A stretch of 64,000 bases of DNA from Eledone cirrhosa (Eukaryota). The notes below the pieces were generated by a model. That model was not told where the DNA came from and did no database searches. It worked only from the letters and a program-made list of their open reading frames with translations. The stretch covers positions 233,368,001 to 233,432,000 of the forward strand of contig OZ024741.1 in assembly GCA_964016885.1 (NCBI GenBank), written 5' to 3'. The position numbers and the translations under genes were made by a program. Positions 19,733 through 61,035 of this stretch are shown here, in pieces. The first letter of the stretch is position 1, and each line of letters begins with the position of its first letter.

Positions 19733-19770
19733 ACATTTGAAAAGGGGGTTTTAACCCCGAAATATCATGT
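19733..19770 (+). ncRNA. Minimal hammerhead motif, U3-A8 core
   Basis: ACAT TTGAAAA G-GGGGTT-TT-AACCCC GAAAT ATC ATGT. Stem III is essentially absent, as in minimal Penelope-type hammerheads. Confidence 0.6.
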
Positions 19771-20554
19771 TGAGTTCAAATCCTGCCGAGGTTAGCTTTG
19801 CCTTTCATCCTGACGAGGTTGATAAAATAAAGTCCCAATAATGCTCTGGGATTGATTTAATCGACTTTCCCTTTCCCCCAAAATTATTGACCTTGTGCCT
19901 AAATCAGAAACCAATAATTATACTAATATAAATATATATATATATATATATATATATATATATTCGTGTGTGTGTGTGTGTGTGTATATATATATATATA
20001 TATATATATATATATATATATATATCTATATATATATATATATGTGTACAAATATATGTATGTATGTATACATATTTGTATGTGTGTGTGTATATATATG
20101 CATATGTATATATATATATATATATATACCACGCTGTAATGTGGCCGTATAGGTAACACGGTAAAAACCTCCCAGTCCACACTGTAAACGTGGTTGGTGT
20201 TGGGAAGGGCGCCAGACAGTCCTATGCGAGCAAGACAACCACTCTTGCCTCAAGTGGGAAAACTCCCGTCCAAACCCATGCAAGCGTGGAAGATGGACGT
20301 TAAACGATGATGATGATGATGATATATATACAATACAAAGAAATATACAGACACGTGCAAATACATACATATACCCACATATATCCCTGAATTTGTGTGG
20401 TGCCAACCTTAACCGTTGTTGCTCTATGAATAATAGGGACCAAATAATCTGTATGGATTAGATTGATTCAATATCAGAGCTATATAATACATTATAAAGA
20501 AAGAAGAAACATTAAATATAAATAAACAGATATAATATACCTAAATTCCTTCAT

Positions 20555-20650
20555 TATCCTCGACTACGTAGTTTCGTGGCTATTATGCAAAAACATTACA
20601 TCATAGAGATGCAGTATTTTTGTGAGGTTTGCCGACTTATCAAGAGGATA
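20555..20650 (-). ncRNA. Type I hammerhead ribozyme, antisense copy of 20961-21056
   Basis: Near-exact reverse complement in the left arm of the 20481-21130 inverted repeat. Confidence 0.78.
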
Positions 20651-20960
20651 CCTCATTTAGAGTTTCAAAACACGTCCGTAGGACGCGAGATAGAATCCCG
20701 AAAGGCGGAGGGGGAACTTATCACGTGATACAGCGGTCAAGAAACAGAGCTAAGCCTCTTACAACCAAGAGAAAAATACCATAAAAGGCGGAGGGGGTAT
20801 TTATGTCAAGGCCGTAGAAGAGTTGGCTAGGAGGGCGAGAAGTGTGATTAGTGTAAGCTTAACAGCAGTCACTATACGTCAGTGGTTACTCTACCATAGG
20901 GAGTTATAAACAGGATTCTATCTCACGTCCTACGGACGTGTTTTGAAATTCTAAATGAGG

Positions 20961-55998: not shown

Positions 55999-56649
55999 TG
56001 ATGACGTATGTATGTATATATATGTATTTATATATATATATATGTATATATATATATACATATGTATGTATATATATGTATTTATATATGTATATATATG
56101 TATGTATATATGTATATATATGTATTTATATATATATATATATGTATATATATATACGTATGTATGTATATATATGTATATATATATACGTATGTATGTA
56201 TATATATGTATTTATCATCATCATCATCATCATCATCATCAACGTTTAACGTCCGTGTTCCACGCTTGCATGGGTTTGGACGGGGGTAGTCCCACTTGAG
56301 GCGTGTATGTATATATATATATATGTATTTATATATATATATATATGTATATATATATTTATATATGTATATATATATGTGTATGTATATATATATATGT
56401 ATTTATATATATATATATATGTATATATATATTTATATATGTATATATATATGTGTATGTATATATATATATGTATTTATATATATATATATATGTATAT
56501 ATATATATATATATGTATGTATATATATGAATCTATATATATATATATATATTTATATATGTATATATATATATGTATGTATATATATGAATCTATATAT
56601 ATATATATATATATATATGTATGTATATATATGTATGTATATATATATA

Positions 56650-58192
56650 TCATATTCATCATCATCAAAGTTTTACGTCCGTTCTTCCACGCTAGCATGG
56701 GTTAGACGGGTTGTCCTGTTGTGGGCTGTGTCTAGTTGGCTGACCATGCCTTGCTCATACAGGAACTGATTTGGCTTGATTTCTACAGCTGGATGCCCTT
56801 CCTAACACCAACCTCATTTACAGTGAGTGCTGGGTGCTTTTTCGTGGCGCCTACACGTCCACTTTACAGTGTGGGCTGAGTGCTTTTTTGCCGTGGCACC
56901 TCCACGACCACCTTGCGGTGGGGGCATATTGTCTATATGCTTCAGCTTGTACCCATGGGAGGTCGGGTACTCTGTATTACTGCGTGACGCCAGAGGTAAC
57001 GGTCGTGTGTCATTGCCTTTGAGAGGTGTAATTGGGTATGGTCGGCTTTTATCACCTCATCCCAGGTCATCTTGGGTCTCCCAACTCCGCGGTTTCCATC
57101 GACTTCTAGTGCTCTGCACCTTTTTATTCAGCTGTCATCCTTCATATGCATCACATGTCCATACCAGCGCAACCGCCTCTCCTGCACATAGCATTTGATT
57201 CCTCTTATGCTCAGTCTCTCTCTCAATTCATTTATGCTTTGTCGTTCACGTATATTACTGTTACACATCCATCGGAGCATGCAGGCTTCGTTTCTCTCTA
57301 ATCTACATAAGTCTTCCACCTTCAGCGCCCAGGTCTCACTACCATGCAACATCGCTGTTCGGATACTCGCATCATACAGTCTGCCTTTCATACTGAGGGA
57401 GAAGCCTTTTGCAGCTAGCAGTGGTAGTAGTTCCCTAAACTCCCGTTCTTACCCTAGTTATTGTACTTTCTGAACACCCACCTCCGCTGCTAATTTGGTC
57501 ACCTAGGTAGCAGAAGCTGTCTACTGTTTCTACAGAGCCCTCCCAGAGATTGGTGGTACTTGTTTCCTGTGGCTGTTTGCTGCTTGCTGTCCTAGTACAG
57601 CTGCTGCATGTGAAGCCTACATTCTTAATTAAGCTTCCTGAGATCCCGCTACATCTCTTGTGTACCCATTGTTTGCATTTGGGGCAGAGAATGGAGTTCC
57701 TACATACTGAGCAAGGCCATTTCCCTGAGGGGATCTGGGTTCTGTTTTCTCGTCTACTTACAAGGACCTTAGTCTTTGTCATGTTGACTTTGAGACTCTT
57801 TCTTTCTAGTCCCTGCTTCCAAGTTTGGAATTTCTTCTCTAGTTCTACCATAGATTCAGCTATGAGTGCAAGGTCATCAGCATACAGGAGTTCCCATGGG
57901 TATCCGGTCTTAAACTCCTCCATTATTGCCTGCAGGACTATGCTGAACAGGAGGGGGCTAAGAACAGAGCCCTGGTGGACCCCAACCTGTATGCTAAATT
58001 CCTCGCTATACTCATTGCTAATCCTAACTTTGCTGACTGCTCCCCTATACATGGCTTGTACCGCTTTCACAAGCCATTCATCTACTCCTAGTTTTCTAAG
58101 AGCCCACCAGATTACAGCACGTGGAACTCTGTCAAAGGCTTTCTCAAGGTCGACAAATGCCAGGTAGAGTGGCTTACTTTTAGCTAGGTACT
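56650..58192 (-). mobile_element. RTE LINE 3' fragment with disrupted RT
   Basis: [16 protein letters not shown] and RRLRWYGHV in frameshifted ORFs; its 3' UTR matches the body and tail of the SINE family A. Confidence 0.9.
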
Positions 58193-60798
58193 ATGAATGT
58201 ATATATATATATATGTATATATATATATATATATATATATATATATATGTATATGTATATATATGTATATATATATATATATATGTATATATATATATAT
58301 ATATATATATATATATATATATATATGTATATATATATATATATATGTATATATATATATATATATATGTATATATATATATATATATGTGTATATATAT
58401 ATATGTATATATGTATATATATATATATATATGTGTATGTATATATATATATATGTATATATATATATATATGTGTATGTATATATATATATGTATATAT
58501 ATATATATATATATATATATATATATATGTATATATGTATATATATATATATATATGTGTATGTATATATATATATATGTATATATATATATATATATAT
58601 ATATATATATATATATGTACATATATATGTATGTGTGTATGTATATATATATATATTATAATAGATATATTATATATAAGACTTGTCTCTCGACGCAGAC
58701 AACCTGCCTGGCCCATATAAGCATAGAAAGCCTGTTTAACAGTGATGATGATGATCATCATCATCATCATCATCATCACTGTTTAACCTTTTCCCATACT
58801 TGCATGAGTCAGCCGGGTTGTCTGCGTCGAGAGACAAGTCTTGATGATGATCATCATCACCGTCTAGCGTTCATTTTTCCACGCTACCATGGGTTAGATG
58901 AGTTCTCCTCCTATGTGACAAGCCAGATCAGATGACCGTGTCTTGTTCATGCAGAACTGATTTTGGCTTGGTTTCTACAGCTAGATGCCCTTCCCAACAC
59001 CAACCACATTTACAGTGTGTGTTGGGAGTAATTTTCTTATGACACCTACACAACTACTTTACGGTATGAACTGGGGATGGGGAACTTAACAGGTGAGGTG
59101 TGGGGTATTGGGGAGTGGGTGGGGAAGGTAGGGGAAAGTGGTGCATACTGAATGTGTGTGTATATATATATATATATATATTCATATAAAAATGAGAAAA
59201 CTCATCGCTAGAAAAGCTATTAAAACAGCAAAATGCTGTCAATGACAGCAATGAGCAACAGTGCCACAGAGGCCAGTAGCCAGTAGTCATACCATTTTAA
59301 AATGCTGGATCATGCAACAGAAAAATATATCTTTCTGCTAGTATGATGTGTATGTGATAAAACAAGCAGCACAGATAGCAGAAAGAATACTCAAGCTGTA
59401 GTGTTCCACCACCAGATCACTCTTTGTCTGGCTGGCACTTTGCTGCAACCACAAGTCCCATCAGTAGTTCACAATAGGTTGTCAACATATTATATATATG
59501 AACCCATGCTAGCATGGAAGATGGACGTTAAACGAAGATGATGATGATGATGATGAATGTGTGTGTGAGGAATATATTGAAAGCAGTAGCACTTACATTG
59601 CATGATTCATAATATAGGTATAAATGAAGGCACACACAATATGTTTATGTAGAATACACATAGAGATTTTGCTATGATCTTGTCATAGCTATCTCAGTTA
59701 CTGTGTGAGAATGCCTGGCTCTAGTATTTTCAGGATTTATTATCCATCATCAGTGAGACTAGAATAAGTTATAGCTTATATACTTTGTGTGTATAAAACA
59801 TCTGCTGAAGAAGTTCATTTGCATACAGATGGGATTAGCAGTAGCAGTAACATAATGGGATTCATAATAGAAGTGTATATGGAGGCATATATAATATGTT
59901 TGTGGATGATAAACATATACATGACTAAACTACTCTTAAAAGTAGTGCCCCAGCATGGCCACAATCTAGTGACAGAAACCAGTAAAGGAATATATGTGTG
60001 TGTATGTATGTATATTTGTGTATGTCTGTTTGTATGTGTGTGTGTGTTTGTATGTATGTATGTATGTGTATGTATATACATGCATGTGTATGTGAGTGTG
60101 TGTGCCCAAACACAAATGAAAGCTGATGCAGACAGGAAAACATGAATTCTTTCATCTCAGTCTCTATTGTAACTAAATATAGTTTATATTTTGGTTATTT
60201 TAGCTTCACAGTTGTGTTTCTGTTATAGAATTCACCTTTCTTTTTTTTTCCTTGTTATGTCGTTTCAAACAAAAACTCAAATAGAACAATACCTGAAACC
60301 AAAATAGCGACATTAAAAATCCCCACTCTCCACCATTAGTGCTAATATATAACTCTATTGACCATTTTATTCTTCCATGTCTGTCTGTGAGTCTACAATG
60401 TGCAGCAATGCATTACATTCCCATGACTTGGCATTTAAAACAGAAAATAATGGTGATTAGCACACAATTGCATCTGCTAGAGCACCTGACTGTAACTCTA
60501 CATCACTGCAGCAGCCACTGAGTGACCAACTCAATATGTTGCTTTAACTAGCTGCCTTTAATGTACGTTGTCATGATGATGGTGGTAGTGGTAATTATAG
60601 AGATGATGGTGGTGGTAGTGATTTTGATGGTGATGGAGGTGATGGTGGTGGTGGTAATGATGACGATGGTGGTGATGGTAATGATGGAACATATGAGCAA
60701 AATGTGGTGCCTCATCCAGTCTAATCTTGAACTGTGAAGCCCCATCCAACCGAAGTGAGCAGGAAAAGCAGATATAAAATGATGATGATATATATATG

Positions 60799-61035
60799 TA
60801 GTTTACTAACTAGATAGCTATTTAATTGTCAAAGCTTTTTTGTCACACATTCTGTGACCTTCTCAATGACTATTCCTGCTCCTCTGTGTCTCTTCATTTT
60901 GAATTTGTTTAATTTGCTCTATCTTGTCTTAAAATAGAGAAGAGATACAAGAGAGCAAGAATAGTCATAGATAAGGTTACAAAATGTGTGATGAAAGGGC
61001 TTTGACGATTGAATAAACATCCAATTACTAAACTA
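60799..61035. mobile_element. Diverged fold-back Penelope-like element with two degenerate hammerheads (60828-60870 minus, 60964-61006 plus)
   Basis: Imperfect inverted arms of about 100 bp. Consensus GTCA TTGAKAA G-GTCACA-GAATG-TGTGAC GAAA..GC TT TGAC, then AATAAA. Confidence 0.6.

Follow-up and report, generated by a model that had tools for sequence, protein, structure and literature searches.

The window analyzed here is a 64,000-nucleotide stretch of the Eledone cirrhosa genome (NCBI GenBank assembly GCA_964016885.1, contig OZ024741.1, positions 233,368,001 to 233,432,000 of the forward strand); coordinates below count from its first letter. It is AT-rich animal DNA with many microsatellites and dispersed repeats, in which we find five hammerhead-like elements. 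Positions 3 and 8 of the core form a Watson-Crick pair in all five, U-A in three and C-G in two, with no 3-8 mismatch. An earlier annotation made from the sequence alone, here called the original prediction, had pointed to the three U3-A8 cores, and both their positions and their letters are confirmed: TTGAAAA at 19737-19743 (+ strand, site 1), TTGATAA at 20968-20974 (+, site 2), and TTGAGAA at 60866-60860 (- strand, site 3). It overlooked a second U3-A8 copy at 20643 (-) and the canonical C3-G8 hammerheads at 52524 (+)/52318 (-) and 4991 (+). Site 2 is real, site 1 is probable, and site 3 is dead. The hammerheads very likely derive from the terminal repeats (pLTRs) of several families of Penelope-like elements (PLEs), left as truncated or non-autonomous head-to-head insertions in TA-rich DNA.

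Descriptor, anatomy, and fold all identify site 2 as a complete type I hammerhead (20961-21056, +). A 7-bp stem I leads into the U3-A8 core, and stem II has a G10.1-C11.1 closing pair, a bulged C, and a hairpin-bearing loop of 50 nt. The GAAA segment follows at 21036-21039, then a 10-nt palindromic helix III (21039-21048) and C17 (21049). The fold has a z score of -3.4, and the minimum-energy fold of the homodimer is a dimeric hammerhead, at -61.7 kcal/mol versus -48.0 kcal/mol for two monomers. A second copy of the hammerhead lies on the opposite strand (20555-20650, -; U3-A8 core 20643-20637, C17 20562). The two copies occupy the inverted arms of what we call element 2, whose left arm (20481-20698, -) and right arm (20913-21130, +), the latter ending in a (TA)n-type microsatellite, are identical at 213 of 218 positions; the element is young, and it has a one-sided extension of about 150 nt. 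The unique middle between the arms (20699-20912) belongs to a repeat family and holds two GGCGGAGGGGG boxes, and is a possible candidate for an internal promoter region. The middle also contains a CACGTG palindrome. In the predicted fold of a read-through transcript, the arms of element 2 pair with each other at 16 of the 16 positions sampled, and the ribozyme would therefore be masked.

Site 1 is a minimal type I hammerhead (19729-19774, +), identified by descriptor and anatomy. Its U3-A8 core is followed by an extra G (19744) after A9, a 6-bp stem II (19745-19758), GAAA (19759-19762), a 2-nt palindrome, U16.1 (19765), and C17 (19766), with the cut predicted 3' of C17. The motif lies in a single-copy fragment (19632-19770, +) flanked on one side by a (TA)n run and on the other by a common, presumably SINE-like, dispersed repeat that truncates the fragment 4 nt past C17. 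Because this repeat starts at about 19770, only 4 bp of stem I belong to site 1 itself. The element occurs once in the window, as a lone fragment with no inverted arm, and a search of metagenome contigs for the exact motif with positions 7 and 8 left free gave no matches. Site 1 is probably a genuine hammerhead, and its anatomy fits the PLE minimal form.

Site 3 belongs to an old fold-back element with TA-rich ends (60788-61045). Its hammerhead (60824-60874, -) is decayed, with the U3-A8 core still in place, A in the position of G12 (60841), and U17 at 60832. The mirror copy (60960-61010, +; 60968+) keeps U3, A8, and an intact GAAA, and has A in the position of U4 (60969) and a G-U closing pair. 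Each arm has thus lost an essential core base of the type I hammerhead, G12 in one and U4 in the other; G12 acts as the general base of the hammerhead (PMC6155905). The arms are alike in 89 of 117 columns (76% identity), both retain U3 and A8, and neither has a palindromic helix III. This pattern favors an ancestral U3-A8 core, and we read site 3 as a relic that attests to decay and not to present function.

Canonical elements in the same window allow an internal comparison. A C3-G8 type I hammerhead at 52519-52573 (+; core 52524) has a palindromic helix III and A17, and its mirror copy (52269-52323, -; core 52318) lies in the same fold-back (52218-52624), the arms of which are identical at 183 of 185 positions. 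The second C3-G8 candidate (4984-5077, +; core 4991) combines a 7-bp stem I and a palindromic helix III with a poor stem II and a fold z score of +0.3, and lies within an inverted repeat (4066-4190/5005-5130).

How readily could such cores be found by chance? The heptamer by itself is uninformative, given 63 TTGAnAA on the two strands of the window, alongside 55 CTGAnAA, 44 CTGAnGA, and 42 TTGAnGA. A full type I descriptor, which was composed after the sites had been seen, matches three places in the window (19737+, 20968+, and 20643-), against a background of 0.033 matches per window overall and 0.003 for U3-A8 in 300 local dinucleotide shuffles. It matches neither site 3 nor either canonical C3-G8 element. 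The cores of sites 1 and 2 are complete (U4 G5 A6, A9, G12 A13 A14, A15.1-U16.1, and H17). A looser descriptor gave 1.3 matches per shuffle, and four weak candidates (43789, 10032, 2809, and 12140) did not rise above the shuffle background and were set aside. When four of the elements were compared pairwise (the 4991 element was left out), none showed significant similarity (p 0.065-0.875), which bears out the original prediction in calling its three elements dissimilar. A kinship between site 3 and the 52524 family, which have a common stem II start, was likewise not significant (p = 0.095).

Public sequencing data place element 2 in a large family. A search with 20520-21100 listed six public runs, with no RNA run among those listed, and four of the six, from at most three samples in two studies, were aligned to 20700-21122 at a likeness of at least 80%. 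The alignments comprise 620 and 584 contigs and 3,000 and 3,155 reads. None of the variant rows listed (40 of 144) falls at U3, A8, GAAA, or U16.1-C17, and in our reading of the table every listed row attains at least about half the depth in one or more runs; the likeness filter favors the window copy, and the rows carry no linkage between positions. Two common variants add stem pairs (21015 A>G, and a T inserted after 21030). From these alignments, a C3-G8 majority in the element 2 family appears unlikely. A C3-G8 family consensus, with single mismatches as frequent as the double change, was among the results that the original prediction said would count against it; the site 2 family has no C3 or G8 majority in the listed rows, and sites 1 and 3 lie outside the region aligned.

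Contig depth indicates that the element 2 family is a very abundant repeat: summed depth reaches 250,000-280,000 over 20955-20984, versus 4-102 for single long contigs, although the summed figure is not a copy number. Over this interval, which covers stem I and the U3-A8 core, contig depth exceeds that of the hammerhead's 3' half some 25- to 100-fold. The 5' half is thus commoner than the 3' half, as if many related families had only the 5' half alike. Contig loose ends past 20912 (five in X1 and four in X2, all from one sample) agree with 20333-20359 in 23 of 27 letters, compared by eye. This resemblance implies head-to-tail units, and suggests that other copies of element 2 are joined in this way, with a probable 580-nt repeat unit (20333-20912, -) that contains no open frame longer than 68 amino acids.

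The case for a PLE origin begins with the layout of the elements. Four of the five are built as inverted repeats in which the motif faces outward, in a TA-rich or microsatellite context, site 1 being the exception. The distance from cut site to arm end is 43-81 nt in six arms, and 229 nt to the far end of element 2. The hammerhead lies in a terminal repeat with a palindromic helix III, except for the non-palindromic helix III of site 3. Metazoan PLE hammerheads, including the U3-A8 class of Cercyon in Schistosoma mansoni, are also of type I with a short or palindromic helix III (PMC4209133). They occur in pairs on opposite strands 100-700 bp apart, and the likeness extends to our opposite-strand pairs a few hundred bp apart, to U3-A8 beside C3-G8 families, and to many truncated copies (PMC4209133). 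Like the PLE minimal hammerheads, site 1 has a palindromic 15-16 segment, G10.1-C11.1, and an additional base following A9, and site 3 has this additional base too; the bulged helix II of site 2 resembles the D. virilis PLE form (PMC4209133). The loop I-loop II tertiary contact is reported to be missing in PLE minimal hammerheads (PMC6155905). Unlike the Cercyon type, the elements here are in another host, and at site 2 the helix III palindrome is 10 nt long and loop II, of 50 nt, is structured.

The insertions themselves also look familiar. Inverted pLTRs, 5'-truncated inverted copies, and a bias toward microsatellites are described for PLEs (Arkhipova et al. 2013, PMC3846280; Craig et al. 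2021, PMC8557442), and our elements share with endonuclease-bearing PLE insertions the head-to-head inverted ends of about 200 bp, the asymmetry of the ends, and the microsatellite targets. They differ in having no open reading frame (ORF) between the arms, no clear target-site duplication, and, in element 2, an extension of about 150 nt versus 30-40 nt. Because the copies are non-coding, without an ORF for reverse transcriptase plus GIY-YIG, they are filed as PLE-like ends and not as PLEs.

These features can be joined in a mechanism. The parent RNA would carry a type I hammerhead and be cut after position 17; helix III, being short and self-complementary, would be completed by the pairing of two copies. 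Position 3 would pair with position 8, as C-G in some source families and as U-A in others. The U3-A8 pair would have become fixed in source elements and then been copied into insertions, a step that is evident at site 2, likely at site 3, and putative at site 1. After insertion, copies would decay neutrally, as at site 3. In a read-through transcript of a fold-back, the hammerhead would be hidden within a long duplex, so that cleavage by the copies in the genome is unlikely. Selection for catalysis would then plausibly have acted on the 3-8 pair in the source elements.

Several results weigh against this reading. The fold of site 1 is weak (z score, -1.3). Rfam scans matched no hammerhead family, either over the whole window (E ≤ 1) or in three short regions that included the canonical 52524 copy (E ≤ 10); the matches listed were of miRNA and snoRNA type on hairpins and microsatellites, plus one tRNA model match above the cut-off. 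A protein domain scan of 9 of the 54 ORF stretches listed gave no match to a PLE ORF or GIY-YIG. No clear target-site duplication is seen, the flanks being microsatellite. In the family alignments, 104 of the 144 variant rows lie outside the listing and the filter stands at 80% likeness or more, so minority C3 or G8 alleles are possible. Finally, the hammerhead of one PLE is reported to be dispensable for insertion in vitro: its mutants left insertion unaffected, and cleavage needed protein.

Sequence samples from elsewhere are a further point against, at least for a general rule. A generic GAAACGT motif gave at least 116 loci and 117 unique matches in metagenome contigs. Among the matches listed (117 unique), 59 cores were C3-G8, 29 U3-G8, 6 C3-A8, 4 U3-A8, and 19 other; both single changes thus outnumber the double change. 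With a minimum of 4 bp set for both stem I and stem II, 18 of the matches listed remained, 17 with C3-G8 and 1 with C3-A8. Much of the U3-G8 class (23 of the 29 among the matches listed) comes from one 37-member family with an ambiguous register: its core could be a U3-G8 wobble, or the upstream C could be the true C3, with one base inserted after it. In this family (L082 and 36 related matches), the base before UGA is mostly U and in others C, and G8 is fixed. The metagenome sample gives no support for strict 3-8 covariation in general, and it is silent on the Eledone cirrhosa genome. In viral contigs, a GGGG-stem motif gave 71 loci and 56 unique matches, of which 6 were structured (4 C3-G8, 2 other, 0 U3-A8); these are mostly chance matches and uninformative. 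The site 2 motif with positions 3, 7, and 8 free had no matches in viral contigs.

The core variant itself is already known. That C3-G8 is a core pair and U3-A8 its compensated form agrees with published hammerhead work (PMC3088659), and any novelty of U3-A8 lapses with the natural cases published in 2011 and the PLE cases published in 2014. Perreault et al. (2011, PMC3088659) reported several natural examples of the covariation, with in vitro activity cited second-hand. In S. mansoni, U3-A8 turned up in PLE hammerheads that a C3-G8 descriptor had overlooked, and a new U3-A8 descriptor gave about 1,300 matches alongside about 2,000 others (Cervera and De la Peña 2014, PMC4209133). The compensated pair here is the same as that of Perreault et al.; ours lie in the ends of animal repeats, and a dimer is probably needed; hammerhead cleavage as dimers is reviewed in PMC6765202. 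For cephalopod PLE hammerheads, a literature search, with subscription papers and repeat libraries outside its scope, gave only an Rfam count in giant squid (PMC6962438). The particular elements were not found described in the literature searched.

The original prediction attributed the U3-A8 cores to repeated selection, and other explanations have to be weighed against this. The cores could have arisen by neutral decay (C>T and G>A) of AT-rich DNA, or could match by chance: of the four heptamer classes, TTGAnAA is the most frequent in the window, site 3 has decayed, site 1 is short and unreplicated, and single-mismatch cores are common among the matches listed from metagenome contigs. We consider this very improbable. 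At site 2 both changes are present in both arms, which differ by 2%, and the core is otherwise intact; the aligned runs show no C3 or G8 majority, both site 3 arms retain U3 and A8 at 76% identity, and a structured U3-A8 match is expected at 0.003 per window. Decay of CpG as the origin of U3 and A8 is rejected, neither position lying within a CpG in these copies. The claim that the double changes do not reflect decay therefore stands for site 2 and falls short at site 3, where an essential core base is lost in both copies. A stronger reading, in which selection for self-cleavage produced U3-A8 independently in all three families, seems to us possible but doubtful. It draws on the lack of sequence similarity among the elements and on the absence of mismatched cores in five elements with canonical families in the same window. 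However, dissimilar short non-coding ends may still descend from an old U3-A8 ancestor, so "repeated" cannot be equated with independent; PLEs are known to have a large U3-A8 class (PMC4209133); site 3 is dead; and a tally of five elements lends the repeated double change little statistical force (one-sided Fisher p = 0.10, or 0.17 for the four intact cores).

A different question is how element 2 moves. It may resemble the non-LTR retrozymes (LTR, long terminal repeat), with a 580-nt unit bearing one U3-A8 hammerhead, multimer transcripts, self-cleavage as dimers, circularization, and mobilization by PLE proteins; the window would then hold a single unit together with a partial copy in inverted orientation. 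The proposal does not conflict with the PLE origin preferred above, from which it differs only in life cycle, and we regard it as possible but doubtful. Like animal non-LTR retrozymes, element 2 is non-coding, has a type I hammerhead with a strong predicted dimer, and possibly forms head-to-tail units, and retrozymes have been proposed to be non-autonomous PLE derivatives (PMC7229834; bioRxiv 10.64898/2026.07.22.740005). Its putative unit is longer than the monomers of roughly 300 bp described in animals (PMC7229834; 200-400 nt expected), and the window copy is a fold-back, with no tandem array found in the window. The loose ends on which the unit depends come from one sample, are short and partly of low complexity, and no aligned read or contig spans the 580 nt; moreover, partial tandems of PLEs yield the same junction.

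Because the variant is already known, the value of the finding is mainly practical. Searches with Rfam or a strict CUGANGA motif will undercount hammerheads in the Eledone cirrhosa genome; as a test case, element 2 is both young and well folded. Selection on the 3-8 pair could be tested directly in a genome with many C3-G8 and U3-A8 families. In its boldest form, which we think unlikely, the proposal is that element 2 is a 580-nt retrozyme-like element, very abundant and mobile until recently, that depends on PLEs, has a 10-bp dimer helix, cuts efficiently, and gives rise to circular RNA, and that U3-A8 cores of several origins make up at least half of the hammerheads of the genome, missed by Rfam and CUGANGA searches. 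If this abundance and these multiple origins were true, they would offer a natural system for measuring selection on PLE ribozyme catalysis.

The window has other repeats and gene fragments. Descriptor scans detected no hammerhead in the fold-backs at 1739-1896, 2703-2805, 10484-11338 (arms 10484-10614/11190-11338), 43496-43927, and 44173-44289, and none was detected in that at 58678-58842. One arm of the 43496-43927 fold-back contains four 39-nt tandem units. A young tandem array at 48616-49217 has a 41-nt unit, a 121-nt higher-order period, and a 97% match. Among the nine ORF stretches scanned for protein domains, a KY-like Ig domain (PF23265) matched on the + strand at 38741-39199 and 42199-42789; these are exon-like stretches of a KY-like host gene, as 34750-34971 probably is too. 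Four RVT_1 fragments were found in the same nine stretches. Two minus-strand regions, 53230-54861 and 57438-58190, have reverse-transcriptase fragments followed by a PHD-finger match; they are 75% identical and LINE-type by appearance.

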